Shown: positions 16,518 through 43,383 of the stretch, piece by piece
How positions within the stretch are numbered: position 1 is the first letter of the stretch
Layout: the number at the start of each line of letters is the position of its first letter
Source of the DNA: Acidimicrobiales bacterium
GTDB lineage: Bacteria > Actinomycetota > Acidimicrobiia > Acidimicrobiales > SZUA-35
Length of the DNA stretch: 64,000 nt
Assembly (NCBI GenBank): GCA_965224435.1
Contig: OZ245048.1
Span: forward strand, 1,724,511-1,788,510
Direction: 5' to 3'
Position numbers and translations under genes: made by a program
Notes under the pieces: generated by a model
What the model saw: only the letters and a program-made list of their open reading frames with translations
Told to the model about the DNA's origin: nothing
Database searches by the model: none

Positions 16518-16668
16518 TGATGACTGCGACTGGTTCTGGCCTACGCCACTCACGGGTTCAGCTAGGCCACCTACTAGGTCATAGGGCCTATTGCCTTGGG
16601 CAGAGTATTTTCCATTGGAATCCTCCCCGCCTTCAACGCTACGCTGGAGCGGTGGATTGGGAGTTTTG

Positions 16669-17487
16669 ATGGATATCCGAGCGGTTGTTGGTGCGGCCAG
16701 AGTCAAGGCCGAGCGAAAGGTTGGCGAGACAGTGGCGTCGGTGAGCCGTCGCCTTTCAGGGTCTTCAGAACAACCCCCGGCCAAGACACTCTTCGTGATT
16801 GCCCACGCCCGGTCCGGCTCGACGTTGCTCACCCACCTTCTCGGCGCTCACGATGACATTTTGTCCGTCGGTGAGCATCACGTCAGCTATAGCAAGGATT
16901 CTGACTTGCGCCGGTTGCGCGATCGCAGCGCGTTTATGGCCAATGATCTCAAGGCCCGGCCGATCTATGTCGTTGACAAGATCGTGTACAACGAGCACAC
17001 CATCAGTGATGACCTCCTGCGTGACTCCTCGATCAGGTTCGTGTTCTTGCTGCGACGGCCAGAAGGCACGCTGCCCAGCGTTGGCAAGATGTTCGGCCAG
17101 GCCGACATTGGTCGGCAGCTGGCCTACTACCGTCGGCGTCTCGACGAGATGGTCACCATCGCCAAGAAGGTGGGGGACCCGACCAGGTCGGCCTTCATGA
17201 CCTATGAGCAGATCACGGGCCAGCCCGACGCGACTCTGTCCTACCTCAGCGGCTTTCTTGATCTCGATTCGCCCCTGAATAAGGACTATGACGTCAGCCG
17301 CACGACGGGCCGTCAGGCCTGGGGTGATCCGTCCGAGCGTATCTTCTCTGGCACCATCGATCTGCGCCGCGGTGATTCTGACCCGCTACCAGTTGATATC
17401 GCAGTTGAGGCTGAGGCCATTCACGCCTTCGCCCTGTTTGAATTGGCGAAGCAATCTGCAGCAAATCCCCTGGTTAGCGACTCCTAA
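16669..17487 (+). CDS. sulfotransferase-family protein
   Basis: Has the 5'-PSB loop 'AHARSGSTLL' and the 3'-PB motif 'FLLRRPEGTLPS'. SD 'gggag' lies upstream of ATG 16669 (the listed ORF starts at 16591). Confidence 0.8.
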   Translation: MDIRAVVGAARVKAERKVGETVASVSRRLSGSSEQPPAKTLFVIAHARSGSTLLTHLLGAHDDILSVGEHHVSYSKDSDLRRLRDRSAFMANDLKARPIYVVDKIVYNEHTISDDLLRDSSIRFVFLLRRPEGTLPSVGKMFGQADIGRQLAYYRRRLDEMVTIAKKVGDPTRSAFMTYEQITGQPDATLSYLSGFLDLDSPLNKDYDVSRTTGRQAWGDPSERIFSGTIDLRRGDSDPLPVDIAVEAEAIHAFALFELAKQSAANPLVSDS

Positions 17488-18810
17488 GTGTTGAGCCAGG
17501 TCTCGGACCGAACAACCTCGTCGACCCTGACGACGGCAGACTCTTACTTTGGGCCATGGTCCAGGGGTCTGGGACAGATCTACATTGTTACGGCCATGGT
17601 CACTGCTTTTGGGGCCTATGACATCAAGCCTATGTTCCACACCCTGGTCCTTGGTTTCGCCTTTGGTTGCCTCCTGTTGGCTCCTCGCCAAGCCATTTTG
17701 GACATCCGTGTCTCCCTGATCTCGGTCATGATGTTGTCCCTGGTGGCCGCATCGGTCTTATGGACCTTTGACTCGGTGACGACAACGTTTCTGGTCCGCC
17801 TGGAAGTCCCGCGATCACTGTTTCTACTGCTTGTTATTGCTGTGCTTCCGTTGGAAGACACCATTGCTGGTCTGAAGAAGGCCATATGGGTGATCTTGGG
17901 CATGACCATCATTGGCTTGATTCTGGTGCCGGCTACTCGATCACACGGCATTCTGGCCGGATCGACCGAGCCCTATCCCGGCTGGCATGGCTTCTTCCTG
18001 CACAAGAACTCGATGTCGCCCTATCTGATCTTCGCTCTCAGCACGCTGTTGATTTGGGAAAAGAGCAAGGCAGCTCGAGTTCTTGGATTCCTGACCATCA
18101 TGGTCTTGATGGTGGGATCGCAATCGGGTACCGGCATCGGCGCCAGCCTGTTTGTTATTGCGTTCTATATTTGGGTTGTCATGTACCGGCGCAGCTCGAA
18201 CCGTTGGTCAGGCGGATTCTTGATTGCATCTGTTGGGCTGCTGTTCTGTGCGGCCATTACTGGAGCGGCAGCAATTGGCCAGATCTCCGAATCTGCGGGC
18301 AAGGGCTCGTCCTTCTCGGGCCGAACTTTCATCTGGAGCGCGGTTCTCGATGCCATTAGCCAACGACCCCTTCTGGGCTATGGCTATGGAGGCTTGTTCC
18401 AGAACCCGCCTTCGGATACAACCCGGGAAATATGGCGAAACATCGGGTTTGAGGCCAATCACTCCCATAGCGGAGGATTAGATCTACTGCTACAGCTTGG
18501 TGTTGTTGGCACGGTGCTCTTTGGTGGCCTCTTCGTATCGACCCTGCTCGGTGGGCTCGGGGTCCGAGAGGACGAGCAGCGGATGGCCGACTGGATCCTC
18601 ATCGTTCTGGCTGTGCAAGTTCTCATCAGCCTGTCCGAACCAGTCTTTCTTGGGCCATGGATGCTGGTAATGATGATTCTTCGGGGACTGACCCTCAAGA
18701 CAATGCCATCGTGGCGCCAACGTCATGGACGGGTCGCCACCATTCATGGTGAGCGGGCTCGGATCCGGTCGGAACACGACGACGAGCTTGACTATCAGTC
18801 CGTCGAATAG
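17488..18810 (+). CDS. O-antigen ligase/polymerase family (Wzy_C) membrane protein
   Basis: A polytopic membrane protein with a loop 'FSGRTFIWSAVLDAISQRPLLGYGYGG...NHSHSGGLDLLLQLGVVG'. Its GTG start directly abuts the stop of the upstream sulfotransferase. Confidence 0.8.
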   Translation: MLSQVSDRTTSSTLTTADSYFGPWSRGLGQIYIVTAMVTAFGAYDIKPMFHTLVLGFAFGCLLLAPRQAILDIRVSLISVMMLSLVAASVLWTFDSVTTTFLVRLEVPRSLFLLLVIAVLPLEDTIAGLKKAIWVILGMTIIGLILVPATRSHGILAGSTEPYPGWHGFFLHKNSMSPYLIFALSTLLIWEKSKAARVLGFLTIMVLMVGSQSGTGIGASLFVIAFYIWVVMYRRSSNRWSGGFLIASVGLLFCAAITGAAAIGQISESAGKGSSFSGRTFIWSAVLDAISQRPLLGYGYGGLFQNPPSDTTREIWRNIGFEANHSHSGGLDLLLQLGVVGTVLFGGLFVSTLLGGLGVREDEQRMADWILIVLAVQVLISLSEPVFLGPWMLVMMILRGLTLKTMPSWRQRHGRVATIHGERARIRSEHDDELDYQSVE

Positions 18811-18842: not shown

Positions 18843-20176
18843 TAGGTTCGAATGGGGGTGCGACCTGACTGGTTGCCCTTCTCACTGCCCGATTCGTCTG
18901 CGTCTTTGGCTGGGCCATCAGATTCGTCCGCTTGGCGCTGTGCCCGGATAAGCATCAGCCAGCCCCCAACTGCGAGGTAGATCTCGGCCACGATGGTGCC
19001 GATGACGGCACCGCGCCACGAGTAGGAGGGAATGAGGGCGATGTAGAGCACCATGCTCAACGCGGCGGAAGAGATTAGCAGGTAGGCGCGCCGGGAAATG
19101 AGGCCAAGTCCCATGAGCCCGTTGAGTGGTGCGCGACTGATAGCGAGCAGGGGGATCAATGGCACCAGCCAGCGAACGATGTTGACATCGATCTTGTCGG
19201 TTCCTGGCATGAAGCGAAGGAGGATCGGTGTCAGAGTGAACATGGCCAGAGCGATGACCAGGCTCAGGGCTAGGGACGTGCTGGCAAAGCGCTTGGCCCG
19301 GTCAACGTGCAGACCCTTGCGGCCGTCGCCCTCGGGCAAGAATCGCTGGAAGAGGGCCTTGTTCATGGTCTGGATCGGGAACTGGGAGAGCAACACAATA
19401 CGGAAGGCAGCGCCATAGAGGCCAGCGTCGGCCTCTAATCCGTAAACGTTCATGATGGCCTTGTCCCCATTTGTCTGGAGGTTGGAGGCGGCCATTGGTG
19501 TTGACAGCTCGAAATTGGTTCGCACATAGTCCCGGTCAGGCTGCATGAGACCAGGCCGTAATCCGAAGCGAGGTAGCACCAGAAACACTGCGACTGCGCT
19601 GGTGAAGGTGAAGCCGATGAGCCAAGCAATGGCGAGATTCTGGATAGTCATGTCGGCCAAGGTGTAGGTAGCCAGGAGTGAGCCAACACGAACAAGGGGC
19701 AGAGCCAGTCGTATCTTGGCCGACGTTGCGAATCCGTGCGTGGCTTGAATCAGGGTGGTAGCCACATTGGAGATCGGGAAGAGGATGAGTTCAGCAACGG
19801 CCATGAGGAACATGGCGAAGACGGTGACAGTGGAAACAACGAAGGAGGCAATCAGCGTGGCAACACCAACGGCCATGACACCCTGCAAGATGGTCATCCA
19901 GAGGGCGCGACTGCTTACAACCTGCGGGTCATCGTTCAGCTTGATAATGCGTTGTAAGACCAGAAGCTGCAGGCCAGACCAGCTCAGCGCACCAATCGGA
20001 CCAATGACCCCGTAGAAGCCGACGTAGCCGCCATATACCTCGGGTTCGAGGGCATTGAGGAGAAGCAGGAACGAGATGATGTTGGCTACAAGGCTCAGTC
20101 CGTCACCAAGCCCACTCCAAGCCACATCTCCCATCATCTCGCCGTAGCGACGGAAAAGCCCTCGAACCCGAGTCAT
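18842..20176 (-). CDS. MOP-superfamily oligosaccharide flippase (Wzx-like)
   Basis: A 444-aa protein with about 12-14 predicted TM segments. The N-terminus '...DVAWSGLGDGLSLVANIISFLLLLNALEPEVYGGY' is typical of polysaccharide biosynthesis/flippase proteins. Confidence 0.75.
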   Translation of the reverse strand: MTRVRGLFRRYGEMMGDVAWSGLGDGLSLVANIISFLLLLNALEPEVYGGYVGFYGVIGPIGALSWSGLQLLVLQRIIKLNDDPQVVSSRALWMTILQGVMAVGVATLIASFVVSTVTVFAMFLMAVAELILFPISNVATTLIQATHGFATSAKIRLALPLVRVGSLLATYTLADMTIQNLAIAWLIGFTFTSAVAVFLVLPRFGLRPGLMQPDRDYVRTNFELSTPMAASNLQTNGDKAIMNVYGLEADAGLYGAAFRIVLLSQFPIQTMNKALFQRFLPEGDGRKGLHVDRAKRFASTSLALSLVIALAMFTLTPILLRFMPGTDKIDVNIVRWLVPLIPLLAISRAPLNGLMGLGLISRRAYLLISSAALSMVLYIALIPSYSWRGAVIGTIVAEIYLAVGGWLMLIRAQRQADESDGPAKDADESGSEKGNQSGRTPIRT

Positions 20177-21087
20177 GAGGCGGCCAGACTATTCGGAGAG
20201 CAGGGCGGCAGATTTTCTTGCAAGTCGTCGACCCAGACGGGACGGAGAGATCCGGTCACTGTCGCAAAGTTCGCACAATCCAAGGGTGTTCCGAGCCAGG
20301 AACCGAGTTGTAAAAGGTCATGGTCAAAAACTTCACTCAGCCTGGCAATGTCATGATCAGACAGGACCGGCTTTGGTCCGGCCCGCCATTGATTCCGAAT
20401 CCGGTTCACGAGAGACTCTGGGGCAAGTCGTCGAAGCAGATCATAGAGCGGAGCCGACTTCAACCGCTCACGAACCGTGCTGCTGGCTAGCCGTTCGGCG
20501 GTGACATTGTGCTGACGTGTCGCGTCCCAGACGGGCGTTCCCTGGTAGCCAAGAAAGCCGCAGACGCGCTCAAGCTCAGCCTGGGGATCTTTCAACAGAT
20601 GATCAAAGAAAACTGGCAAGACGGACTCGGTGCCAAATCTGGTGAGGTAGGGGAGTAGCTGCTTGCTGTAGCAGCTGTACTCGATCAGCTCCGGATTGCT
20701 CCCGCTGATCGCAACTTCCAGTGGCTCGTGGATTTCTCCCTCCAGCTGCATGTGCTGGTACTGGGAGACAAGCCGGTCAATGGGGTGGCGCATCACATAG
20801 ATGAAGCGAGGATTGTCAATGGTGGCGGCCAGGCGCTCGATGGTGCGGGGGTAGGTGGGGAGTTTGGAGTAATGAGTGCTGGACTCGCCGCAGAGATCGG
20901 TCGGAACAGCCCCGTCGAAGTGGGATGCGTACCACTCCAGTCCTTGATCCCAGACTGCGTCATCGCTAAAGAAGTACAGCTCCTTGGGCTGGCTCATCGA
21001 GAGACCGGGTTGAGCTGCTAATTGCTCGTGCAAGGTCGAGGTCGCAGCTTTCATCGCTCCAATGATAAAGAAATCTGGGAATCGCAT
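20173..21087 (-). CDS. sulfotransferase-family protein
   Basis: Has the 5'-PSB loop 'FFIIGAMKAATSTLHEQL' and the 3'-PB motif 'YVMRHPIDRLVSQY'. It overlaps the flippase start by 4 nt. Confidence 0.8.
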   Translation of the reverse strand: MRFPDFFIIGAMKAATSTLHEQLAAQPGLSMSQPKELYFFSDDAVWDQGLEWYASHFDGAVPTDLCGESSTHYSKLPTYPRTIERLAATIDNPRFIYVMRHPIDRLVSQYQHMQLEGEIHEPLEVAISGSNPELIEYSCYSKQLLPYLTRFGTESVLPVFFDHLLKDPQAELERVCGFLGYQGTPVWDATRQHNVTAERLASSTVRERLKSAPLYDLLRRLAPESLVNRIRNQWRAGPKPVLSDHDIARLSEVFDHDLLQLGSWLGTPLDCANFATVTGSLRPVWVDDLQENLPPCSPNSLAAS

Positions 21088-21470: not shown

Positions 21471-22424
21471 ATGATTCAATCCCCAGTGTTCCTAGTTGGC
21501 GCCGAGCGCTCTGGTACCACCATGCTCCATCTGATGTTGGACTCTCACCCCGAGATTACCGGGTGTGAAGGTTTCGAGTTCATGGTTGAGATGGTCGGGG
21601 AGCAGGGCGAGCGTCCTGAGCTGGCGGAGTATTATGAGTATCTGTCGCGGCATGCAATCTTCGGCACGTCGGAACTGTCGATCGACCGCAGCCTTGATTA
21701 CGACTCGCTGGTGAATAACTTCCTCGAACAGCGTCATGGTGCAGGCAACCAGGACCAACCAGTCATCCCTATGGTCCACTTTGGATTCTCCCGCCTCCTT
21801 CACATTTGGCCCGAGGCTCGATTCATCCACCTGGTACGAGATCCCCGCGACGTGACCAGCTCGGTCATCGAGATGGGTTGGGCGGGAACCGTTTGGCATG
21901 GCTTGGACAAGTGGATTGAGTCCGAAGACGAATGGACCGATTTTGCCAGACGGATCGATGCTTCCAAGTTCGTCGAGCTTCGCTATTCTGACCTCATCGC
22001 CGATCACCCAACAGAGCTCGGCAAGGTTTGTGACTTCCTGGGCCTGGCCTACACCGATGAGATGATGTCCTACGCCAAGGAGACCGAATACACGGTTCCT
22101 GACCCGTCCCGAGTCGAAGCCTGGAAGGCAAAGCTCAACACTGACCAGCTCTCCCTGGTCGAAGGGCGGGTGGCCCAGATGATGACGGATCGTGGTTTCG
22201 CCCTGAGCGGCGGGCCCATGCGTCAACCTGCTGGAATCGAACGATTCCGGCTGCAATGGCAGAACCGACTGGTCAAATGGAAGATGCGACTCGATCGTTT
22301 CGGGCCTCGCCTGTTCGTCGAAAGCCTCCTGATCCGGGTCATTCCCGTTGATTCCTATCACAAGTCGGTTCAGCTACGGACCAACAAGGTCGAGCGATCA
22401 CGGCGGAAGAAGTCATGGCGCTAA
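21471..22424 (+). CDS. sulfotransferase-family protein
   Basis: Has the 5'-PSB loop 'FLVGAERSGTTMLHLML' and the 3'-PB motif 'IHLVRDPRDVTSS'. Confidence 0.8.
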   Translation: MIQSPVFLVGAERSGTTMLHLMLDSHPEITGCEGFEFMVEMVGEQGERPELAEYYEYLSRHAIFGTSELSIDRSLDYDSLVNNFLEQRHGAGNQDQPVIPMVHFGFSRLLHIWPEARFIHLVRDPRDVTSSVIEMGWAGTVWHGLDKWIESEDEWTDFARRIDASKFVELRYSDLIADHPTELGKVCDFLGLAYTDEMMSYAKETEYTVPDPSRVEAWKAKLNTDQLSLVEGRVAQMMTDRGFALSGGPMRQPAGIERFRLQWQNRLVKWKMRLDRFGPRLFVESLLIRVIPVDSYHKSVQLRTNKVERSRRKKSWR

Positions 22425-22459
22425 ACTCCAACAATCCCCAATCAGGAAGACTCTGACCG

Positions 22460-24412
22460 GTGGAACTCTCCTTTGTAATTGCAGCCCTGCGGCGTAACGG
22501 CTGGGTCATCATTGTTTGCAGTGTGCTTGGCTTTTTCGCCTCGCTCAGTATCGAACCGCCTCGAGCCCAGTTCGAAAGCAATGGACTTCTCCTACTTTCG
22601 CCCTCGGGATTTGATGGTGGAGTCGCCTACGCCAACCAGCCCGATCGTTTCGTGCTGACCCAGCTTGGTGTGTTGCAGGCTGAGGGCTTGGCGGAACGAG
22701 TGGCCGAGCGAGTCAACGCCGGATCGAGCTTGGAAGAAACGGCAGGCTCGGTAAGTCGCAATACCGAGATGACGCAGAATCTTGATAGCGACACCGTCAA
22801 TATCGCTACCACCACTGGCCAAGAGCTACGCTCCCAGCTGATCGCCCAGGCCTACTTGGATCTCTATATTGAAGAGGCTAGGGCAACTGTTGAAGGCACC
22901 AGCCAGCCCGAATTGGAACGCTTGGACAATGATATCGACGAGGTTGAGAGCGAACTCACCAGCGTTCAGCAGCAGATCGTCTCTGTCATGGCTCCGTTCT
23001 TGCCCAGCACATCCGATGAAATCACCAAGCAGATCCCACCTCTGAGCATTGTCGCTCCTGAGTTGGCCACGCGTTTGGAAAATCTCACAGCCCAACTCAA
23101 GGCTCTGAATCTGAGCCGGATCGCTCTGGAATCCGAAGTTTTCTCCAGCTTCAACTCCATTATTGTTCAGGACGCCACCCTGCCGGTGAGTGCCATTGGT
23201 AACTCGACAGCGTTGCTGACAGCGGCCCTGGTCTTTGTCGCCACCACCCTTGGTTTCATCATTGCCTTGGTCTGGACCCGTTTCTCTGATCGTGTCCTGG
23301 ATGACCTGCAGGCCTCGGAGATCCTTGGTATGCCCATTGTCGGCGAGTTGGACCACGCTCGTGCGCTTCGCCGCTCGCCGCTGGTTGCCTTTGACAACTT
23401 GCCGAGCTCACTCATCCCCGTTATTGATCAGTTGTCGGTGCGGGCCGAGGCCCTTGGTTCGGTGACCGAGCCGCTCACCGTCGCTGTTGTCGGTACCCAG
23501 CGGGTGGCGGGAACAACGACCTTGGCCACTGCCATGGCTGGCCGCTTCAGTGCGGCTGAGTTTGAGGTTGTGCTGGTCGACCTGGATGCCAGCGATCCGT
23601 ACTTGTCCGAGGCCTTTGGTGGCATTCGTGGCGAAGGCTTGGCAGCAGTCTTCACTCCGAATCCGGAGCGAGCATTCATTCGCACCGGCCGGACCGGCGT
23701 GACCCTGTTGGGTCGTGGTCACCGGGCCGTCTCGATCCGTCGTGACCTGGTCGGTGAAGTCCTGGACGTCGCTAAGAGCCGAGCTCATATTGTCATCATC
23801 GATGCCGGTTCGGTGCTTGATGCTGCGGCCACGGTCGAACTCTGTGATCTTGTCGATGCTGTTGTACTGGCGGTTCCCTTGCGTCGCCAGGAAACCCGCC
23901 CCCTTGGACACGTTGCTCGTCAGTTCGAGCCCATCACGAAAAAGGTCTTGCCCATCATCACCCATCCGATGGCCAAACGAGCTGCCTTGTCATCAGACAA
24001 TAGTCACGCTGCTCCTGAGACGATCGAAGAAGCCATCGTGCCGACAACTCCGCCGACCCCTCGCCAAGCGCTTCCGCCCGAGCCGTCTGAACCGGCTGAG
24101 CCATATGTGGAGCCAATCGAGACACCAGCCAATAGCAAATCCTCAGCTCGGTCCGAATCGGCCAAGAAAGGATCAACACAGTCAGGATCAACAAAGTCAG
24201 GGTCAACAAAGTCGGGACCCGCAAGGTCTGAAACGGATACCTCCGGGTCGCGGAAACCAAAGAATGACCGGACCAAGAGTGATCGTACGAAGAGCGACCG
24301 CACCAAGAACGGCCGCAAGCGTAGTGAACAATCGACATCGGGGAATAGCTCATCGGGAAGCTCGTCCTCCGAGTCTGATCAGTCCGGCAGCGGTTCCCGC
24401 TCAAGGTCCTGA
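22460..24412 (+). CDS. Wzz-type chain-length determinant fused to a degenerate BY-kinase-like P-loop domain and a Ser/Lys/Thr-rich tail
   Basis: Has an N-terminal Wzz-like TM 'WVIIVCSVLGFFASL', a coiled-coil ectodomain and a second TM 'LLTAALVFVATTLGFIIALVW'. The P-loop region 'VAVVGTQRVAGTTTLA' has no Walker-A Lys. The other motifs are 'VLVDLDASDP' and 'IVIIDAGS'. The last ~100 aa are rich in S, K, T and R and contain no Tyr. Confidence 0.7.
   Translation: MELSFVIAALRRNGWVIIVCSVLGFFASLSIEPPRAQFESNGLLLLSPSGFDGGVAYANQPDRFVLTQLGVLQAEGLAERVAERVNAGSSLEETAGSVSRNTEMTQNLDSDTVNIATTTGQELRSQLIAQAYLDLYIEEARATVEGTSQPELERLDNDIDEVESELTSVQQQIVSVMAPFLPSTSDEITKQIPPLSIVAPELATRLENLTAQLKALNLSRIALESEVFSSFNSIIVQDATLPVSAIGNSTALLTAALVFVATTLGFIIALVWTRFSDRVLDDLQASEILGMPIVGELDHARALRRSPLVAFDNLPSSLIPVIDQLSVRAEALGSVTEPLTVAVVGTQRVAGTTTLATAMAGRFSAAEFEVVLVDLDASDPYLSEAFGGIRGEGLAAVFTPNPERAFIRTGRTGVTLLGRGHRAVSIRRDLVGEVLDVAKSRAHIVIIDAGSVLDAAATVELCDLVDAVVLAVPLRRQETRPLGHVARQFEPITKKVLPIITHPMAKRAALSSDNSHAAPETIEEAIVPTTPPTPRQALPPEPSEPAEPYVEPIETPANSKSSARSESAKKGSTQSGSTKSGSTKSGPARSETDTSGSRKPKNDRTKSDRTKSDRTKNGRKRSEQSTSGNSSSGSSSSESDQSGSGSRSRS
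24170..24322 (+). repeat. two blocks of 15-bp in-frame repeats in the tail of the pseudo-kinase
   Basis: Positions 24170-24214 hold 'ggatcaacacagtca/ggatcaacaaagtca/gggtcaacaaagtcg', encoding GSTQS GSTKS GSTKS. Positions 24263-24322 hold four units encoding NDRTK SDRTK SDRTK NGRKR with synonymous differences. Confidence 0.85.
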
Positions 24413-24569: not shown

Positions 24570-25391
24570 ATGATGAAGGACAGAGCAGTGTCTGAACAGG
24601 TTTCCCCCAGTGACATCCCAGTTGTGATCCTCTGCGGAGGGCAAGGAACCCGAATTCGGGAAGCATCCGAGAGCCTGCCCAAACCGTTGATCGATATTGG
24701 CGGCAAGCCAATCCTTTGGCACATCATGAAGAGTTACCACTCTCATGGTTTTCGCCGCTTCATTCTCTGCCTGGGGTACAAGGGCTGGAATATCAAAGAA
24801 TACTTCCTTCGATATCAAGAGAATGTCTCGGACTTCACTCTCGAACTCAGTTCCGGCACCGGCCCCAACTTCCACGGCCACGGTACTGACGACTTTGAGG
24901 TGTCACTGGTCGACACCGGTCTGAATACCGGAACTGGCGGTCGCATTCCCAAGATAGCCCACCTGCTGGATCAGGACTATTTCATGCTCACCTATGGCGA
25001 TGGCCTTGGTCCCGTCAATGTTGGGGATGAGCTCCAACAACTGGCTAGTTCAGACAACCTCGGCATGGTGACCGGCGTTCACCCAACCTCTCGTTTTGGT
25101 GAATTGCACTGTGTCGACGGCATGGTTGAGAACTTCGCGGAGAAGCCAGCCTCAACCGGCTGGGTATCTGGCGGGTTCTTTGCCTTCCGCAAGGAGTTCC
25201 TGGACTACCTGGACCCCGAGGACCCTGACCAGATGTTGGAAAGTCAGCCGCTACAACAGCTGGCTCGAGACGGCAAGCTCTCCATGTACGAACATGAAGG
25301 TTTCTGGATGGGCATGGACACCTTCCGTGAATACACCGCATTGAATGAGATGTGGGCCGCCGATGAAGCTCCTTGGAAGACCTGGGAGTAG
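24570..25391 (+). CDS. rfbF: glucose-1-phosphate cytidylyltransferase
   Basis: Similar along its length to my recollection of enterobacterial RfbF/DdhA. Matching segments include 'VVILCGGQGTRIRE...KPLIDIGGKPILWHIMKSY...LGYKG..IKEYF' and an identical C-terminal 'APWKTWE'. Confidence 0.92.
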   Translation: MMKDRAVSEQVSPSDIPVVILCGGQGTRIREASESLPKPLIDIGGKPILWHIMKSYHSHGFRRFILCLGYKGWNIKEYFLRYQENVSDFTLELSSGTGPNFHGHGTDDFEVSLVDTGLNTGTGGRIPKIAHLLDQDYFMLTYGDGLGPVNVGDELQQLASSDNLGMVTGVHPTSRFGELHCVDGMVENFAEKPASTGWVSGGFFAFRKEFLDYLDPEDPDQMLESQPLQQLARDGKLSMYEHEGFWMGMDTFREYTALNEMWAADEAPWKTWE

Positions 25392-27697: not shown

Positions 27698-27705
27698 GAA
27701 TCTGC

Positions 27706-29565: not shown

Positions 29566-31248
29566 TTGCCGCGGGCGAAGAATGAAACGAGACCTGTCGT
29601 GGCGATTGTTGGTCTTGTTGGGCGGAGAAGAAGGAAAGCGGTGGGGTTGTTGAATTCGGGACGACGTAGTTGGGACATCATCCCTAGGTTGATGGACGCC
29701 ACAGTGCTGTTCGCCACTTGGGCCGGGGTATTTGTTGTTTCCAACATCACGGAAACATCGGTCCGTTCTACTGGGCATTCTTGGGTCCTAGTCGGCATGG
29801 CCGTCGTCTTCACCCTGGTCTTGTTCGGGCGAAGCAATCTGTATGAAACGAAACCAACGCTTCCCCGGACCGAGGAGATTTCTCGGGTTTCGATGTCGGT
29901 CGTTGGTGGCGTAGCTGGATGTGTTGTTGTTGATGCCTTCCTCGATTGGCGCATCGGTGCGTGGGAGCTGGTTTGGGGAGTTGGCATTGCCTCCTTCCTG
30001 CTCATGATCTTTCGCGGCTTGCTTCGAAACCTTGGTGATCTCATTCCCGGGCACCACGAGCCGTCTCGTATCCTGATCGTCGGAACAGGCGAAGAAGCTC
30101 GCGAGCTTGCCGACGTGATTCTGGATCATCAAGAAGCTCGGCTCCATCTTGTCGGGGTAGTCGGCCATCTGCCTGTCGCCCAAGAAAACGGGCTGGCCGA
30201 TATCTGGATTGGTCCAACTGATCGCCTCATTGAACTCATGCATATCCATCAGGCCACCGGAGCCCTAGTAACCCCGACAGGCTTCCGAGCCGCACAGTTC
30301 CGCCAGATCAGCACCGGGCTTCTCAAGGCTGGGTTCGATGTGCAGACCTCAACGGGGGTCAGCCGTCTTTGGGAGGGCCGATTTGAGGTTCGCAGCCTGG
30401 CGCATGAACCACTGGTCGTGATGGGAACTCGAAAACTTGGTACGGGTCAGATGACCCTGAAGCGAATTCTCGACGTGATTGGGGCCAGTGTGATCTTGCT
30501 GCTCGCTTCACCCGTCATGCTGGTCGCGGCTCTGGCCATCAAGCTGGAAGACCGTGGGCCAGTGTTCTTCCGTCAGCATCGTGCTGGGCGCAACGCCGAG
30601 CCGTTTGGCATGCTCAAGTTTCGCTCCATGGTGATCAATGCCGAGGATTTGAAGGCCGAGTTAGCCGAAGCCAATGAGCGAACTGGACCGTTGTTCAAGG
30701 TCAGTCACGATCCACGAATCACCAAGGTCGGGCGCATCATTCGGGAGCTTTCAATCGACGAGCTTCCCCAACTGATCAATGTGATTATTGGTGACATGAG
30801 CTTGGTCGGGCCGAGGCCAGCGTTGGACGAAGAAGAGCGCGCCTTTGACGACGAGCTGCGCAGCCGCTTCGACGTTCGCCCAGGAATAACCGGACTCTGG
30901 CAGGTCGAGGCTCGAAGCAATGCCAGCTTCGCCGCCTACCGTCGGCTTGATCTGCATTATGTCGAGAACTGGACTATTGGTCTGGACATCCGAATCCTCA
31001 TGGCAACAGTCGAACAGGTTGTGGTCACAGCTGCCATGATTCCGGCCCGGGCAATTCTGTCCCGGTTCTACCAGCAGAAGGACGTTTCGCTACCTGGCAC
31101 GGATGAGATCGCCGGTAGGGACGTGATCGACCTTCGTGACCGAGCAACCGCCAAGATGGCAGCGGAGGCCGACAGTGGCTCACCTTCGACGACCCCAAGT
31201 GACAATCCATCGGGCGACTCGCTGGTGAAGAAGTCAACCTCCTCCTGA
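29566..31248 (+). CDS. polyprenyl-phosphate sugar phosphotransferase, large WbaP/exopolysaccharide type
   Basis: Has N-terminal TM segments and a central Rossmann-like domain 'RILIVGTGEEAREL'. The C-terminal Bac_transf domain reads 'KRILDVIGASVILLLASPVMLVAALAIKLEDRGPVFFRQHRAGRN..FGMLKFRSM...DELPQLINVIIGDMSLVGPRP'. The start is uncertain (TTG 29566 or ATG 29692). Confidence 0.88.
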   Translation: MPRAKNETRPVVAIVGLVGRRRRKAVGLLNSGRRSWDIIPRLMDATVLFATWAGVFVVSNITETSVRSTGHSWVLVGMAVVFTLVLFGRSNLYETKPTLPRTEEISRVSMSVVGGVAGCVVVDAFLDWRIGAWELVWGVGIASFLLMIFRGLLRNLGDLIPGHHEPSRILIVGTGEEARELADVILDHQEARLHLVGVVGHLPVAQENGLADIWIGPTDRLIELMHIHQATGALVTPTGFRAAQFRQISTGLLKAGFDVQTSTGVSRLWEGRFEVRSLAHEPLVVMGTRKLGTGQMTLKRILDVIGASVILLLASPVMLVAALAIKLEDRGPVFFRQHRAGRNAEPFGMLKFRSMVINAEDLKAELAEANERTGPLFKVSHDPRITKVGRIIRELSIDELPQLINVIIGDMSLVGPRPALDEEERAFDDELRSRFDVRPGITGLWQVEARSNASFAAYRRLDLHYVENWTIGLDIRILMATVEQVVVTAAMIPARAILSRFYQQKDVSLPGTDEIAGRDVIDLRDRATAKMAAEADSGSPSTTPSDNPSGDSLVKKSTSS

Positions 31249-31258
31249 CTCCGGCTAG

Positions 31259-33301
31259 TCAGCCTCTTCTGGCCTGGGTGACGTCCTTGGCCACGAAATA
31301 CAGCCGCATGAACGATTGAAACGGCGCAGGCGTCGCGACCAGTGATCCGTGGCGCCATTGCCGAGGAATAATTGCGCGACCAAATACCTCGGCCGGAGAA
31401 TAGGGTCGGACTACCCGGCCGATTGAGTCTCCAGCATCGTCTCCCTCAAAGCGCAGACCGCTTAAAGCTACGGCCTCGGACTTGCTGGGTTTGGCCCAGA
31501 AGAGGGTCAGGATCTTGCGAGCCTCCTCATCCAGGTCCTGGGAGCAATCACACCAGTAATCCATGTCATGCCGGGATGGCAGAAACTTCGCCATATCAAT
31601 TGCACCGGACCAGAGGCGACGAAGGGAATCGGTATCGACGGGGGAGGAGGCATCTTCGAAGACTTCGCAAACAGAGTCATCTTTTGAGTGCTCATAGCCG
31701 AGCAGACGAGCCTTGCCCGACGCCAAGAAGGTCTCGAGGCATGAGACTGGTTCGCCGATCGGGTGGGGGCGCACCGAGTCATCGAAGGCGAAGCGACGAA
31801 TCTGGATGATCTTGTCGATCTCGGGCAAAACCTCGTCTCCTCCGAAGTGGAGATGGAGGGGTTCGTGGCCAGTGACTTCACGGATGATGGTGCCGGTAAA
31901 CATGGCATGTAGTCCCCGCCAGCCAACATCGATCAGGGCAATGGACTCTGACGGCAGTTTCCGCTGGCGAAGACTCTGCAAGATCAAGTTGAGAGGCTCG
32001 GCTGCCCGCTTCTCGATCAGGGCGTTTAGTGATCCGGACTGAAGGACATCGGCCCAGCTTTGGACTGCGTCACCCGTGCCGAGGGCCTGCTGAGGGTCAG
32101 TGTTTCGGAGTGGGTGAGTCTGGGGCAGGTCCTCCAACTGCAAGCGGCAACGGGCAAGGACTGAGCGGAAAGGGATATGGCCGGCCGAGTGAAGCAAGAA
32201 GGCCTCGGAATCACCGGTGCCGTGTCCGATCCATTTCTCGACGCCGACCAGGGGAGCCGCAGCCAGGGACCAGGCCCGTCGCCCGCAATGCAGGTAGTTG
32301 AGGGAGAAGTTCGACCAATGGTCATTGGGCATTGCCTGAGCGACTCGTAGGGGCAACTCGCCGTCCCGAGCAAGGAACTCCAGATGATTGATATTGCTGC
32401 TCTCACATTGTTGTCTCACCCAGAGAACGAAGGCAGTCATGACCTGGCCTGCTACCTGCGAGCCGCCGATGGCGATCGGATCGGGATCACCTCGCTCGAT
32501 TGAGGTCAACCGATGAGTTCTGGCGGCAGCAGCAATGACTGGTCCGGCCGAGGAAGCATTGTTGGCCATCACCGACTCATAGCGTGTTGGATTGGCGGAC
32601 ATGGCCGGAACCGGGGCTGCTCCCGATGCGGCGGCCTGGGTCACGTCGGACCATGGGTTGTTTCCAATAAAGGCAACACCACTATTGCCGAGGTGTTCGT
32701 CGCTAAATGCTAACTCGAAGAGTGTGCCGTCTGATTTCGAGGCATCGTGTTCGCAGGAGACGACGAGGCGGTCGCCGGATTCGATCAGCTCATGGTGCTG
32801 CAGGATGGCGCGGACTGCAGAACCGTCGTGGTGCATATCAGACACAAAGGTCAGCTGGCGACCCTGGCGCAACCGCACGAGCGCTGCCTGAGCACCAGGC
32901 ACTGGCCTCAGAAGCTCGGACTCTGCTTCCAGTTCGACTTCCAGCGCATCGTCTGCTGAGCTAAGGCCAACGGCCATCATGGCAGTTAGCCAGGCGTGTA
33001 GGTGGGCCGATGGGTCCTGTCGTGCGGCCTCGGCCCGTGCCTGCAAATACGACGCCAGAGTACCCCTCCATAGGCCAGCAGCAATGACGCGTCTGGCCAC
33101 CAGGGATTCCATCGCAGAATCACCAAGCACTGCTCTGCTCAGGACAGTGTCAAAGACGTCAATGCCGACCTCAGCGGGAGCGAGTCGTTCGATATCTTCG
33201 ATGATGCCTGTCCAACTAGCAGCGTCTCGATGCCGCCAAAGGAGCCGACGGTGTGACGCTGAGCGTTTCACTCGATCGATTGTGATCTGAGAACGATCCA
33301 C
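31259..33301 (-). CDS. hypothetical 680-aa protein with an N-terminal HAD-like hydrolase domain and a large uncharacterised C-terminal region
   Basis: HAD-like motifs occur in order: 'GIDVFDTVLSR' (motif I-like), 'LTFVSDM' (II), 'SKSDG' (III Lys) and 'FIGNNPWSD' (IV). The remaining ~430 aa have no motif I recognise. The architecture recalls COG5610-type predicted hydrolases. Confidence 0.4.
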   Translation of the reverse strand: MDRSQITIDRVKRSASHRRLLWRHRDAASWTGIIEDIERLAPAEVGIDVFDTVLSRAVLGDSAMESLVARRVIAAGLWRGTLASYLQARAEAARQDPSAHLHAWLTAMMAVGLSSADDALEVELEAESELLRPVPGAQAALVRLRQGRQLTFVSDMHHDGSAVRAILQHHELIESGDRLVVSCEHDASKSDGTLFELAFSDEHLGNSGVAFIGNNPWSDVTQAAASGAAPVPAMSANPTRYESVMANNASSAGPVIAAAARTHRLTSIERGDPDPIAIGGSQVAGQVMTAFVLWVRQQCESSNINHLEFLARDGELPLRVAQAMPNDHWSNFSLNYLHCGRRAWSLAAAPLVGVEKWIGHGTGDSEAFLLHSAGHIPFRSVLARCRLQLEDLPQTHPLRNTDPQQALGTGDAVQSWADVLQSGSLNALIEKRAAEPLNLILQSLRQRKLPSESIALIDVGWRGLHAMFTGTIIREVTGHEPLHLHFGGDEVLPEIDKIIQIRRFAFDDSVRPHPIGEPVSCLETFLASGKARLLGYEHSKDDSVCEVFEDASSPVDTDSLRRLWSGAIDMAKFLPSRHDMDYWCDCSQDLDEEARKILTLFWAKPSKSEAVALSGLRFEGDDAGDSIGRVVRPYSPAEVFGRAIIPRQWRHGSLVATPAPFQSFMRLYFVAKDVTQARRG

Positions 33302-40267: not shown

Positions 40268-41923
40268 TTAGTTGCGGTAGTACGAGTGCTTGCCCCGGTT
40301 GAGCCACGAGCCAGCGTCTTGGCCATCACGGTTGAGGATCGCTCCGGCCAAGTTTCCTCCGGCTCCTGATATCTCAGCCTCAGTCCGAACGAGATCAGGA
40401 ATCTCTGTCGTCCTCGAATCAACGATCACCACAAAACCGTCAACATGTTTGGCAATGGCAAGAGGATCGGCGGCGCTGAGAACGGGCGGGCAGTCGATGA
40501 TGACGTAGTCCAGTTCGCTGCGCAGCGTCTGGATCATGAGGGCAAAGTTCTCACTTCCCAACAGTTCGGCCGGATTGTCTGGAACTGGGCCCGCAGTCAA
40601 GATCCAGAGGCCGCGTACATCCTTGATCTGAGTGGGTTCGATTTCTGCCTCACCAGCCAGGTACAGAGAAAGGCCGGTTTCACTATTGGGAACATCGAAG
40701 AGCCGTTCCAAGGAGGGACGGCGCAAATCGGCGTTCACCAGAGCCACTCGAGCACCATTTTGAGCCAACGCGACTGCGAGATTGCTGGCGACCACGGACT
40801 TGCCTTCGGACGGGAAGGCGCTGGTAGTAGCGATAACCATGGCACCCTCGTCTTCTTCAACGATGGACAAGAACTGAACAGCCGAGCGTAGGCGTCTGAA
40901 AGCCTCCCGTACCCGTTGGCTGCCAATCGACTGAGCTGTCGACCGCATGACGATTGCCCCAGGGCCGCGGCGTGACTGTAGAGGGAGGACGGGAATATGG
41001 CCAATCACTCTTGTCCGTAGAGCATTGGCGATGGTCGACTCGTCTCGGGCAGTGATATCGATGCTGTCCAGCACGATTGCGGCCACAATGCCACCCAGCA
41101 GAGCGATCGAGGTCAGTGCAACAAGAATGAGTCCGTTTGACGGGCCTTTTGGCCCGTCCGGTTCTTCTGCCAGTACCAGGACCCGCGCACTCGGCTCACG
41201 AGTTGCCATCTGTCGCTCAGCCTTGGCTAGCGCATTGCCCAGGTCTCGACTGTCGGTCAGTGCAAGTCCATATTGACTCTGGACAATGGCACGCTCCTGA
41301 GCAAGCTTGAGTGACTCCTGCCTTCGGGCGCTGACGGAAAGGTCAATGGCCACGTCAATCGCGGTTTGAAGCTCCTCCAGCCGTTCCAGCTCTATGGCCA
41401 GATCCTTGGCGGTGGCGAGCGCGGCTTCGGACTGGGTCACCAAGATGACCCGTTCAGAATCGACGAGGTTGATGGCGGTGTCTTCAGTGAACTTGACGTA
41501 AGACTCGGCGAATGCGTTGGCAATGTCGGCGGCAACAGAGGGGTCGACATCAGTTGCCTGGATAGTGAGAACCTCGCTCTCAGGAACGAACAAGACGTCC
41601 AGCTCTTCCAACAACTCGTCGACGTCTCGCTCTGGCACCTTTGTCGCGACGGCCCGAGCCACCACATCTGAACCAACAATGGCCATCTCGCGTTCAAGTA
41701 CAGGAGCGCGGGCGTTCTCATTGGTTGAGCCAACCATGGTCGGGCCGAGTACGACGCTGGCTTCGGCCTCATAGCTGGGAGTTCTTGTTCCGGTGAACCA
41801 GAGAGCAAGAGCCAGTCCGAGCAGACCCGCAAGCAGGATCAGCAGGCGATGAGCGCGGATGGAGTTGAGGTAGTCCTTGAGACCGACCGAATTGTCGTCG
41901 GTTTGGAGATCTTGATACATCAT
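40268..41923 (-). CDS. polysaccharide co-polymerase with C-terminal BY-kinase domain (tyrosine autokinase)
   Basis: Has a Wzz N-terminus 'LKDYLNSIRAHRLLILLAGLLGLAL', Walker A 'FPSEGKSVV', Walker A' 'LVNADLRRP' and Walker B 'VIIDCPPVL'. The C-terminal tail is 'KHSYYRN'. Confidence 0.88.
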   Translation of the reverse strand: MMYQDLQTDDNSVGLKDYLNSIRAHRLLILLAGLLGLALALWFTGTRTPSYEAEASVVLGPTMVGSTNENARAPVLEREMAIVGSDVVARAVATKVPERDVDELLEELDVLFVPESEVLTIQATDVDPSVAADIANAFAESYVKFTEDTAINLVDSERVILVTQSEAALATAKDLAIELERLEELQTAIDVAIDLSVSARRQESLKLAQERAIVQSQYGLALTDSRDLGNALAKAERQMATREPSARVLVLAEEPDGPKGPSNGLILVALTSIALLGGIVAAIVLDSIDITARDESTIANALRTRVIGHIPVLPLQSRRGPGAIVMRSTAQSIGSQRVREAFRRLRSAVQFLSIVEEDEGAMVIATTSAFPSEGKSVVASNLAVALAQNGARVALVNADLRRPSLERLFDVPNSETGLSLYLAGEAEIEPTQIKDVRGLWILTAGPVPDNPAELLGSENFALMIQTLRSELDYVIIDCPPVLSAADPLAIAKHVDGFVVIVDSRTTEIPDLVRTEAEISGAGGNLAGAILNRDGQDAGSWLNRGKHSYYRN

Positions 41924-43383
41924 CGAGAAATGAGTTCCGTTGGGGGTCGAAGGGCGGAGGGAGGTGGTTTGCCGACGCTCGTCATCTTTTCACCGGTTAG
42001 AAGAGTGGCAGCGCTCATGGTTGAAGCACAGACCAGGAGCCAGCCGATTCCCCTTGAGAGGATGCCCGATTCGGTCATGGAGAACATCAGCATGTAGCTG
42101 AGCATGGCGATGGGAAGTGTTGCCGGAGCCCCAGGGAAGTCACGAATCAGTCGGGTAGAGCGGACCACGGACGTGATGAAATAGACCAGCACGGCTGCGA
42201 AACCAATGATCCCGATCTGGAGCAAGTACTCGAGCCCTGCATTGTGCGCTGAAGGCGGATTCCAGTCCTCGAGAAGCCAGATCCTTCTTGCCGGGCTGAG
42301 CCAGCCATTCCAATACGCAGAGTAGCCGTGCCCAAGAAAGGGCCGCCGACTGATCTCGGGAATGAGATTGGCCCAAAGTGATGTCCGCCCGGTGAGGGTG
42401 ATGTCCTTGTCCAGCAGGTCGGTGAGGAGCGGCAATGCCGCGGTGGCGAAGAGAACGCCGACCGCAGAGGCGCTGAACATCGATAGTGCTACCGCCCCGA
42501 ACAGCTTCTCCCTGGATCGAAAGAACTGATACACGGCCATCAGAATGGTGATGAGAATTGCGCTGGCTAGGGAGGTCTTTGATTGGCTACCGAGAAGCAG
42601 GACGAATGAGCCACCGAGAGCGGGAATGGTCCAGATTCTGCTCATGGGGGAGCGTGCAGTCTGAAGAGCCAAGATGATGGCCGCCAAAGTGGAAACCATG
42701 CCAAGCTCGTTCTTGTTGAAATAGATCCCGCTCCAAAGGTCTGAGTGCTGCATGATTCCGTACTGGGGCAGGACGAAGACCCAAGCTAGATTCATCATGG
42801 TGTTTGTCGCCAGGGCGATAGCGGCCATATGGAGAATCTGGTGCCTGCTGAATCGAAGGGCTAAGTAAGCAGCGAAGAAGACGGTGATGGCTACAGACAT
42901 TGACCGGCGGCCGGTCGTGGCGATGTCTTCAGACCAGAGGGTCGACATCAGGATCCAAAGGGTCAGAATCATGAGCGGCTTGTTGGCTCGGATGACACCA
43001 AAGACCCATTGGAAGTTGGGGAGCAGGATCATGAAAGCCACGCCGGCAATGGCCATGAACACGATTGATGAAAGCGGACCGGTCAAGCTGGCGTTGACAT
43101 TGGCATCGGTGTTGAGGGCGTCCGTTGAGGTGAACCAGGTCTGGGGTAAATCGACAGCGAACAGGAGTATGGATAAGAAGGCGAACGAAGCCTCTACGAG
43201 CGAGCTGACCGGGCGACGGCGGCGATAGTGAGGAAATCGACCGTCATGGCTATCGCGGCCATCTGAATCAATCTGGATCGCTGGCGTGCCCATGGCTGGC
43301 CATTTCTCACGGGACCACTCGGAGTCAGAAAACAAGGCACCGTTTTCGCCCTCTTGTTTCCCTCGAACGGTGACCATGGACAA
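41920..43383 (-). CDS. O-antigen ligase/polymerase family (Wzy_C) membrane protein
   Basis: A polytopic protein containing 'LTGRTSLWANLIPEISRRPFLGHGYSAYWNG...SAHNAGLEYLLQIGIIG'. It has a 4-nt overlap with the downstream BY-kinase gene. Confidence 0.8.
   Translation of the reverse strand: MSMVTVRGKQEGENGALFSDSEWSREKWPAMGTPAIQIDSDGRDSHDGRFPHYRRRRPVSSLVEASFAFLSILLFAVDLPQTWFTSTDALNTDANVNASLTGPLSSIVFMAIAGVAFMILLPNFQWVFGVIRANKPLMILTLWILMSTLWSEDIATTGRRSMSVAITVFFAAYLALRFSRHQILHMAAIALATNTMMNLAWVFVLPQYGIMQHSDLWSGIYFNKNELGMVSTLAAIILALQTARSPMSRIWTIPALGGSFVLLLGSQSKTSLASAILITILMAVYQFFRSREKLFGAVALSMFSASAVGVLFATAALPLLTDLLDKDITLTGRTSLWANLIPEISRRPFLGHGYSAYWNGWLSPARRIWLLEDWNPPSAHNAGLEYLLQIGIIGFAAVLVYFITSVVRSTRLIRDFPGAPATLPIAMLSYMLMFSMTESGILSRGIGWLLVCASTMSAATLLTGEKMTSVGKPPPSALRPPTELISR

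Follow-up and report, generated by a model that had tools for sequence, protein, structure and literature searches.

A fused putative BY-pseudokinase domain without the Walker A lysine in a predicted Wzc-like co-polymerase family of Acidimicrobiia

The subject of this study is a single gene, 22460..24412 on the forward strand of a 64,000-nucleotide stretch of contig OZ245048.1 from an Acidimicrobiales bacterium (assembly GCA_965224435.1; the whole stretch is called the window here), whose 650-aa product carries a P-loop that has no Walker A lysine. By its predicted architecture and its locus, the product is a polysaccharide co-polymerase of the Wzc-like class (PCP-2a), with a cytoplasmic domain that has the fold of bacterial tyrosine kinases (BY-kinases). 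Alignments across its relatives indicate that a large family in Acidimicrobiia uniformly lacks the lysine, so that its absence is not the private decay of one gene. The reading that we favor, and that we hold to be probable from these comparisons, is that the protein, a PCP-2a with a BY-pseudokinase domain, works independently of phosphorylation, acting as the co-polymerase of one Wzx/Wzy exopolysaccharide module. A first-pass annotation, made from the letters of the sequence, had described the gene as a BY-kinase paralog with a dead P-loop and a Ser/Lys-rich repeat tail in place of a tyrosine cluster. Its observation is confirmed here and its interpretation is in part supported, in that the pseudokinase proposal holds while the terms "dead" and "paralog" and the idea of a tail regulated by Ser/Thr phosphorylation need qualification. 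The pseudokinase concept itself is not new (PMC12004946, PMC4182512, PMC9800525).

Architecture and fold

An AlphaFold2 model of the protein, computed with an alignment of 55 homologs as input, reaches a predicted local distance difference test score (pLDDT) of 87.3 over residues 1-510. Together with Foldseek, it places two transmembrane helices around a mainly alpha-helical ectodomain, with a BY-kinase-fold domain fused after the second helix, and these features, in a locus of the Wzx/Wzy type, are those of a PCP-2a. The first transmembrane helix (residues 13-30, 22496..22549, modeled as a helix over 14-29) has the hydrophobic sequence NGWVIIVCSVLGFFASLS and falls within the best Foldseek match of the model, full-length Wzc. 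It is followed by an extracytoplasmic PCP domain of about 220 aa (residues 31-248, 22550..23203, pLDDT about 90), which consists of an alpha/beta base and a long helical hairpin (helices 122-180 and 200-230) and which matches Wzc (1e-20) and WzzE (4e-8) in Foldseek as well as the periplasmic domain of Wzc in a hidden Markov model (HMM) comparison. A second transmembrane helix (residues 249-274, 23204..23281, modeled over 250-275) leads into the cytoplasmic domain (residues 275-503, 23282..23968), which superposes on CapA1B1 (4jlv, TM-score 0.82, root-mean-square deviation 3.1 Å) and on the kinase domain of Wzc (3la6, TM-score 0.75). All of these segments lie on the forward strand. The Wzz topology and the BY-kinase-collinear cytoplasmic domain that had been read from the sequence are thus borne out.

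Recognizing these relationships required family profiles, because a Pfam scan of the 650-aa protein returned noise and NCBIfam gave sub-threshold matches alone, over residues 334-506, to the Ssd/CpaE, XrtA-associated tyrosine kinase and eps_fam models. Against sequences from the Protein Data Bank (PDB), the profile of the family defined below finds Wzc first (8e-19), followed by CapAB (2e-13), VpsO, Etk and BceF (4e-13 to 6e-12) and, well behind, MinD (4.5e-6). The window also encodes two canonical BY-kinases, both with a Wzz-type N-terminus and a ParA/AAA_31 P-loop domain and 37% identical to each other, at 40268..41923 on the reverse strand and 49323..51011 on the forward strand. The family HMM matches them at 7.9e-48 and 7e-32. 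Pairwise BLASTP similarity between them and the 650-aa protein is marginal (E=0.015 and 0.27), so that profile-level proof of homology was needed; the label "paralog" is therefore justified at the level of profiles but not by direct similarity. On the tyrosine autokinase model TIGR01007, which has a cutoff of 108 bits, the two BY-kinases score 140 and 152 bits and the 650-aa protein 20.0 bits.

The strongest of the weak NCBIfam matches was to Ssd (CpaE_hom_Actino, 1.1e-5), and we considered whether the protein might instead be a relative of Ssd/CpaE or of MinD. This is ruled out, since profile and structure searches place Wzc and CapB far ahead. The protein stays far below the cutoffs of the Ssd model (24.8 bits against 154) and of the ParA model (14.5 bits against 180), and the deviant Walker A motif KGGxxGK[ST] is not present in it, the position of the signature lysine being taken by Gln347.

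The open reading frame (ORF) itself starts with GTG and ends with TGA, and a Shine-Dalgarno-like AGGAAG lies at 22445-22450, 9 nt 5' of the start. Its N-terminus, MELSF, is invariant or near-invariant across homologs, and an identical public protein (100%, P0001) exists. Other long ORFs overlap the gene (22826-23356, 23408-23965 and 23958-24404 on the reverse strand, and 23715-24434 on the forward strand in another frame). In all likelihood they are a side effect of the 57% G+C content; the gene's own frame is backed by homologs and by the ratio of nonsynonymous to synonymous substitution rates (dN/dS). A scan of 21200-24700 for promoters and terminators gave counts no higher than chance.

The nucleotide site, selection and the tail

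The P-loop of the protein, GTQRVAGTTT (residues 345-354, 23492..23521), aligns with SEGKS in the BY-kinase at 40268..41923 and with AEGKS in the one at 49323..51011, and it has Thr352 at the position of the Walker A lysine and the family-typical Arg348 four residues before it. A three-way alignment agrees with the annotated loss of the lysine, and a search for an intact motif elsewhere found neither GK[ST] nor Gx4GK anywhere in the 650 residues, so the observation stands. The remaining motifs depart from the canonical forms as well. The Walker A' strand, VVLVDLDASDP (residues 370-380, 23567..23599), keeps both aspartates but has serine for the arginine of hhhhDxDxR at position 378. The difference from the two BY-kinases noted in the first-pass annotation is real; its comparison with ADLRR, however, was one residue out of register, as VDLDASDP aligns with VNADLRRP and VSADLRRP, and hence DLDAS with NADLR and SADLR. 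The Walker B strand, IVIIDAGS (residues 444-451, 23789..23812), likewise keeps its aspartate and replaces the proline of hhhhDxxP with serine, and IIDAGS does stand, as had been stated, where the comparators have the DxPP form (IIDCPP and LVDTPP).

Two further elements of BY-kinases are missing. The helix equivalent to BY-kinase alpha2, which reads IPVIDQLSVRAEAL (residues 319-332, 23414..23455), aligns with the O-motif EX2RX2R of the comparators, and the segment PVIDQLS takes the place of the EAFRRLR found in both; its family motif comprises D323, L325, V327 and E330. The C-terminal tyrosine cluster is also absent: the 147-aa tail has one tyrosine, and the final 100 residues have none. By the definition of a competent BY-kinase in BYKdb and TIGR01007, every tested sequence feature is lacking and the fold alone is present. 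Supported by the combined absence of the lysine, the A' arginine, the Walker B proline, the O-motif and the tyrosine cluster from a Wzc/CapB-like fold, the proposal of a pseudokinase or scaffold gains ground.

The two in-window BY-kinases show peculiarities of their own. Their tyrosine clusters are very short, with two tyrosines in HSYYRN (40268..41923) and three in DRYSYAYV (49323..51011), and the first Walker A' aspartate is replaced by Asn or Ser in NADLRRP and SADLRRP, where the Lys-less protein has both aspartates. In the latter, Tyr381 (23600-23602, in DLDASDPYLS) lies five residues past the second Walker A' aspartate, at a position that we take to be that of Tyr569 in E. coli Wzc, a contact to the ATP alpha-phosphate. 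This tyrosine is confined to the query subclade (10 of 89 homologs, with R, W or E elsewhere), and the coincidence in position may be due to chance.

To place these features in a family, we used two sets of relatives. A word-indexed search gave a near family of 89 homologs, from 100% to 31% identity, 55 of which make up the profile. An exhaustive HMM search of 1.84 billion representatives gave a wide family of 1737 proteins (E<=1e-30), in which no fewer than 150 clusters at 50% identity reach E<1e-92, and from the best 150 of the 1737 matches we took as a wide sample 141 newly retrieved 50%-identity representatives. All 89 near homologs have the P-loop VVG[ST]QRxxG[TAS]TT. The Walker A lysine is present in none of the 89 and none of the 141; in the wide sample its position is held by Thr (43), Ala (41), Ser (27), Val (15), Cys (8) or Gly (3), and a lysine anywhere in the P-loop region occurs in just two representatives. 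The O-motif positions are mainly P, D or C in the same sample, whereas L325, V327 and E330 on the alpha2-equivalent helix are kept at 82-87% (motif IDQLxVRAEA). No tyrosine cluster was found in either set, and tyrosine makes up 0.2% of the family tails. Outside the cytoplasmic domain, G265 in the second transmembrane helix is invariant in the 55-member family alignment and reaches 99% in the wide sample. The family occurs in 58 species-representative genomes, all 58 of them metagenome-assembled genomes (MAGs) of Acidimicrobiia/Acidimicrobiales and none from a cultured organism, with Acidimicrobiaceae, Ilumatobacteraceae and Iamiaceae among the carriers. Its members are currently labeled "hypothetical" or "Mrp family ATPase" and have no Pfam domain.

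The rest of the pocket has been retained. In the wide sample, the P-loop glycines G345 and G351 are conserved at 88% and 86%, T353 and T354 (as T or S) at 94% and 87%, the A' aspartates D374 and D376 at 96% and 86%, and D448 and G450 of Walker B at 95% and 98%. The query subclade (at least 71% identity) is further derived, with DxDxR changed to DLDAS and DGGP to DAGS. It has Ser at position 378, where 81% of the near homologs and 52 of the 141 representatives carry Arg, and again at position 451, where 85% of the near homologs have the Pro of DGGP or DAGP. Against the 95%-identical ortholog of a related locus (L007), at a synonymous divergence near 1, dN/dS is 0.005 in the cytoplasmic domain, compared with 0.056 in the ectodomain and about 0.2 in the tail. 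No other part of the protein is under such tight constraint as the Lys-less cytoplasmic domain, which evolves about ten times more slowly than the ectodomain.

These figures bear directly on the possibility that the gene is a decaying BY-kinase duplicate, non-functional or on its way to a pseudogene. Several degenerate catalytic motifs, the absence of a Pfam match and the marginal similarity to the in-window BY-kinases could be read in that way, but intact ORFs persist in the 58 species and in the clusters described above, the supposedly decaying domain is under the strongest constraint, synteny is conserved and the AlphaFold2 model is confident. We consider decay effectively refuted, and a recently decayed paralog is ruled out by the conservation and the dN/dS value. 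It follows that the phrase "dead P-loop" was right about the loss of the lysine but not about decay, as none of the family members compared has the lysine, the domain is strongly constrained and the Mg and phosphate ligands are kept.

Retention of the P-loop glycines, the Mg-ligand threonine and three pocket aspartates makes nucleotide binding plausible, the more so because structures of the Wzc variant K540M were deposited with MgADP (PDB titles), which implies that a Wzc without its lysine is able to hold nucleotide. We see the chances as evenly balanced that Mg-nucleotide, or some other phosphate ligand, still binds at the site and serves there as a cofactor with a structural or allosteric role.

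A more far-reaching explanation is that the protein is an active non-canonical P-loop enzyme, either an ATPase or a protein kinase, in which Arg348 stands in for the Walker A lysine. WNK kinases provide an example of a relocated catalytic lysine. Of the 89 closer homologs, 98% carry Arg348, and R362, R427 and R428 are further near-invariant arginines among them; the conservation of T353, T354, D374, D376 and D448 (86-96%) and of the P-loop glycines, the low dN/dS of the domain and the kinase activity retained by Acinetobacter baumannii Wzc with the substitution K547Q would all be in keeping with such an enzyme. On the other hand, no more than 65% of the wide family keep Arg348, and in 34 of 140 representatives (24%) there is no basic residue at positions 346-350, so that Arg348 is not a universal replacement for the lysine and is ruled out as a family-wide substitute. 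Moreover, the variable small residue at the lysine position suggests no specific requirement there, the query subclade also lacks the A' arginine and the Walker B proline, and neither the O-motif arginines that build the BY-kinase trans active site nor a tyrosine substrate tail is present. We therefore regard an active Arg348-dependent enzyme as quite unlikely.

In place of a tyrosine cluster, the protein ends in a tail (residues 504-650, 147 aa, 23969..24409) made up of a basic start, a Pro/Glu-rich linker and a low-complexity region rich in Ser, Thr, Lys and Arg. Its sole tyrosine is Y549, and its last 100 residues, which are indeed the Tyr-free low-complexity sequence that had been described, are 32% Ser, 10% Thr, 11% Lys and 10% Arg. 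The tail is predicted to be disordered because the full-length AlphaFold2 model gives residues 517-650 a pLDDT of 36-48 and no secondary structure. Tandem Repeats Finder identifies two 15-bp arrays on the forward strand, one encoding GSTQS-GSTKS-GSTKS (24169..24217, 3.3 copies, 88% matches) and the other NDRTK-SDRTK-SDRTK (24260..24308, 3.3 copies, 76% matches). The annotated repeats are thus real, but the count of three GSTKS and three SDRTK units overlooked one substituted copy in each array. Both repeats are confined to relatives at least 95% identical and vary even among those. Across the family, tails range from 1 to 233 aa with a median of 40, have at most 20 aa in 25 of 140 members, are unconserved in sequence, average 18% Ser plus Thr and contain few hydrophobic residues; their one recurrent feature is a basic patch, with 29% Arg plus Lys in the first 12 residues compared with 10% in the domain. 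The alignment of the query with the L007 ortholog has 10 gapped codons in the tail, which carries indels relative to both L007 and another related locus, L006. The tail is relaxed yet not neutral, and its Ser/Lys repeats look like a lineage-specific, slippage-prone elaboration outside the conserved mechanism.

The first-pass annotation had suggested that such a tail might be regulated by Ser/Thr phosphorylation, and a corresponding mechanism would have a Hanks-type kinase phosphorylate the tail and so drive oligomer cycling in the query lineage, in place of Tyr phosphorylation. A cytoplasmic, predicted disordered tail with 34% Ser plus Thr, situated where the tyrosine cluster would be and under some constraint (dN/dS about 0.2), would suit this role, and Ser/Thr kinases are common in Actinomycetota genomes. 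Conservation lends the idea no support, given the short, unconserved and Ser/Thr-poorer tails of most of the family and the restriction of the repeats to the closest relatives. A motif scan of window ORFs of at least 90 aa for Hanks kinases (HRDxKxxN), low-molecular-weight protein tyrosine phosphatases (CxGNxCRS or CX5R[ST]) and PHP phosphatases (DxHxH) returned nothing credible. Ser/Thr phosphorylation, which would be a lineage-specific add-on at most and is conceivable in the query lineage, appears very unlikely to us as the driver of oligomer cycling.

The polysaccharide locus and the proposed role of the protein

The gene is part of a super-locus for polysaccharides that spans over 50 kb (10600-63000), with four Wzy-type polymerase genes (17488-18810, 41920-43383, 50972-52351 and 60591-61940), two phosphoglycosyl transferase (PGT) genes (29566-31248 and 33524-34378) and three PCP-like genes, and this multiplicity suggests that the window encodes several distinct exopolysaccharides side by side. 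Module 1, from about 10.6 to 31 kb, has the Lys-less protein as its sole PCP and contains in addition glycosyltransferases, a BNR protein, three sulfotransferases, a Wzy, a putative flippase, CDP-sugar genes and a PGT. Its Wzy-type polymerase (17488..18810, forward; PF04932, 1.2e-18) is the presumed partner of the PCP, and its polyprenyl glycosylphosphotransferase (29566..31248, forward; TIGR03025, 358 bits, cutoff 295) is the initiating enzyme. The two canonical BY-kinase genes, 16 and 25 kb away in separate modules, each adjoin a Wzy gene of their own: 40268..41923 (EAFRRLR, SEGKS, ADLRRP, DCPP) adjoins 41920..43383, and 49323..51011 (EAFRRLR, AEGKS, ADLRRP, DTPP) adjoins 50972..52351.

Related loci are consistently of the Wzx/Wzy type, with Wzy, flippase, glycosyltransferases, sugar-nucleotide enzymes and WecG. 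Neighbor counts were taken over family loci with enough flanking sequence, so that denominators differ by feature. At least 20 of 37 loci contain Wzy-like genes, and L002-L005 have them too. The most constant neighbor is the gene directly downstream, which in the window encodes a protein resembling glucose-1-phosphate cytidylyltransferase (24570..25391, forward; TIGR02623, 273 bits, slightly below the cutoff of 300) and which has an ortholog (58-68% identity) in the same place in 39 of 53 loci. A PGT lies no more than 6 kb downstream of the family PCP in 33 of 45 loci. Between these two genes, module 1 has a DRL-type oxidoreductase (26402-27787, reverse) and a CDP-glucose 4,6-dehydratase (28251-29360, reverse; 493 bits, above cutoff), which together with the cytidylyltransferase-like gene make up a CDP-sugar branch.

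Upstream, a sulfotransferase gene (21471..22424; PF13469, 5.7e-35) precedes the PCP gene on the same strand with a gap of 35 nt, and the two are probably co-transcribed. Two more sulfotransferase genes belong to the module (16591..17487, forward, and 20173..21087, reverse), and three such genes around the module 1 Wzy and putative flippase would imply that its exopolysaccharide is sulfated. The first-pass annotation had attached the protein to a sulfotransferase-containing module. This is correct for the flanking genes but does not extend to the family, because adjacency is conserved only in the window and its closest relatives, L006 and L007, the family-wide partners being the cytidylyltransferase and the PGT. 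Sulfotransferases are otherwise rare in the family loci: L012, L019, L027, L032 and L037 have one, 36-42% identical, at a distance of about 8 kb on the upstream side of the PCP.

Some further genes of the region deserve mention. A 798-aa protein with BNR and Sortilin-Vps10 repeats (12046-14442, forward), with a C-terminal match to F510_1955-family glycosylhydrolases, has homologs (33-52% identity) close to the Lys-less gene in about 15 related loci, often as its immediate upstream neighbor, and might be an enzyme with which the pathway processes its polymer. Elsewhere in the window are right-handed beta-helix proteins (37077-38969, 53122-54447 and 56991-58727) and a DUF4012 protein (58822-60594).

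In many Acidimicrobiales loci, a third class of PCP accompanies the Lys-less gene, on the minus strand behind the PGT; the window does not have it. Examples are L011:15168-16685, L014:15174-16595, L028:6888-8483, L030:14674-16236, L039:14435-15994 and L044:15018-16433. In these proteins Walker A is intact (SxxxSEGKTT), the O-motif takes a variant form (EAYQKVR), the further motifs read DVDFRRP and LDAPP, and the tails are long and hold 0-3 scattered tyrosines in the last 40 aa; the combination of a retained lysine with no clear tyrosine cluster recalls PssP and GumC. In the window, the corresponding slot behind the PGT is occupied by a 680-aa ORF (31259..33301, reverse) that has no Pfam match, a weak HAD-hydrolase-like similarity in its N-terminal third and a 35%-identical homolog in L029 (18921-20837). 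We examined it as a candidate for the missing second PCP and ruled it out, as hhalign gives a probability of 0.1% and weak HAD-like matches are all that it has.

The presence of PCP genes with a lysine near the Lys-less gene raises the possibility that the latter is a pseudokinase partner of a Lys-containing PCP or BY-kinase, either within a hetero-oligomeric ring or as a regulator. Kinase-pseudokinase pairs exist in eukaryotes. Of 42 family loci, 21 have a PCP-like gene with GK[ST] no farther than 10 kb downstream, usually right behind the PGT, and the window has its two canonical BY-kinases, albeit at a distance. Set against this, the modules of the window, L006 and L007 have no second PCP, 19 of 37 loci have no Lys-containing PCP-like gene within 10 kb on either side, each canonical paralog sits next to its own Wzy in a separate module, and the O-motif interface residues are wholly different, so that mixed rings are not obviously compatible. 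Additionally, EcpK of Myxococcus is apparently independent of active BY-kinases (PMC12004946). A partnership of this kind is, in our judgment, improbable.

In the mechanism that we propose for a phosphorylation-independent co-polymerase, the canonical cycle of tyrosine trans-autophosphorylation and subsequent dephosphorylation would not be possible. Instead, the cytoplasmic domain would serve as a non-catalytic assembly module that holds or organizes the oligomeric PCP ring working with Wzy, a scaffold role modeled on proposals for GumC, PssP2, EcpK and HfsB. The motif IDQLxVRAEA on the alpha2-equivalent helix would form a family-specific protein-protein interface, an idea that fits the finding that the O-motif helix is conserved but with a different motif. 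The Ser/Thr/Lys/Arg tail would be a fast-evolving disordered appendage of the query lineage.

Several considerations weigh against this proposal. All members of the family come from uncultured MAGs and are known from sequence, and the argument from the pocket is based on alignment. The conserved Mg and phosphate ligands and the strong constraint on the domain would also fit an active non-canonical nucleoside triphosphatase. Loss of the Walker A lysine alone is not always decisive, as the kinase activity of the A. baumannii K547Q protein is listed as "not affected" (review table). Finally, the Lys-less protein might not act alone, given the half of the loci with a Lys-containing PCP-like gene close downstream.

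In this regard, it is tempting to consider that the Lys-less P-loop could be a working site, at which the binding and release of Mg-nucleotide, or slow hydrolysis assisted by R348, would switch the ring between assembly and disassembly and so replace the tyrosine cycle. This is a tentative idea, and an unlikely one. If true, it would represent a third way of timing polymerization, beside the kinase-driven and the purely scaffold-driven PCP-2 proteins, and a natural experiment on P-loop function without lysine.

Relation to known systems

For the control of polymerization by PCP-2 proteins, the standard model invokes cycles of tyrosine phosphorylation. The pseudo-BY-kinase systems described as independent of phosphorylation are few and all proteobacterial (GumC, PssP2, EcpK and HfsB). 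What we find in the Lys-less family is what characterizes a BY pseudokinase, namely the fold without key catalytic residues and without a Tyr-rich tail, maintained by selection and linked to polysaccharide synthesis. Since BY pseudokinases and pseudokinase-fused PCP-2 proteins have already been described, the family represents a new clade within a known class. A limited literature search found no paper describing it, and searches of equally limited extent that combined Acidimicrobiia, sulfotransferase and polysaccharide, or BY-kinase, Actinobacteria and Y-cluster, yielded nothing specific to the family. The individual gene is otherwise an ordinary member of an exopolysaccharide locus; with regard to annotation, the proteins merit recognition as PCP-2a-like co-polymerases.

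The Lys-less protein resembles E. coli Wzc (7NHR, 3LA6) and the in-window BY-kinases in architecture, in fold, in the juxtamembrane segment leading into the domain, which in BY-kinases is needed to complete it, and in its Wzy neighbor. It differs from them in lacking the Walker A lysine, the A' arginine, the Walker B proline, EX2RX2R and the tyrosine cluster and in failing TIGR01007, and its ectodomain is much shorter than that of Wzc. A fused architecture is itself common among BY-kinases of Actinomycetota (1588 of 1901; PMC9800525, table). With MinD, ParA and Ssd, the protein shares the P-loop fold of the SIMIBI type, but unlike them it is membrane-anchored, has a PCP ectodomain and belongs to a polysaccharide locus.

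EcpK of Myxococcus xanthus and HfsB of Caulobacter crescentus, which are stand-alone BY pseudokinases (PMC12004946), also combine a BY-kinase fold with the absence of the catalytic lysine and the tyrosine tail, act in Wzx/Wzy pathways and have a proposed scaffold function, and the basic C-terminus of EcpK has a parallel in the basic patch with which the tails of the Lys-less family begin. However, the domain is fused in the family described here, whereas EcpK and HfsB are soluble proteins in their own right and bind to a kinase-less PCP. In EcpK, moreover, every Walker motif and several elements of secondary structure are missing and the C-terminus is an alpha-helix, in contrast to the full CapB-like domain and the long disordered tail of the Lys-less protein.

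The closest parallels by description, on which this comparison is based, are the fused proteins PssP2 of Rhizobium leguminosarum, GumC of Xanthomonas and SMc01795 of S. meliloti. GumC has been called a "pseudo-BY-kinase" (PMC9800525), an effect of PssP2 on chain length has been shown experimentally (PMC4182512), and SMc01795, Mlr8439 and VV1_2305 are among the fused forms listed by Cuthbertson et al., as cited in PMC12004946. Like the Lys-less family, this group unites the membrane and ectodomain parts of a PCP with a BY-kinase-like domain in one polypeptide, has no tyrosine cluster, belongs to Wzx/Wzy-type loci and has a proposed phosphorylation-independent role in polymerization and chain length. 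The group is proteobacterial, while the Lys-less family is found only in Acidimicrobiia; this restriction, and the proximity of the family to the BY-kinases of Acidimicrobiales, suggest that it may have arisen independently of EcpK, HfsB, PssP2 and GumC. According to published descriptions, PssP2 has none of Walker A, A' and B, while what GumC and PssP lack is chiefly the Y-cluster. The Lys-less family is intermediate between these states: the lysine, the O-motif and the Y-cluster are gone, and the P-loop glycines, the threonine pair, the A' DxD and the Walker B aspartate are kept. Because the former have been lost while the remaining nucleotide site is conserved, the family is a good test of whether pseudo-BY-kinases need nucleotide binding. 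What sets it apart from the systems described so far is the combination of a large clade found only in Acidimicrobiia, an intermediate nucleotide site and an exceptionally constrained pseudokinase domain, and it extends fused pseudokinase co-polymerases to Actinomycetota, a Gram-positive phylum, where in many loci they are the sole PCP.

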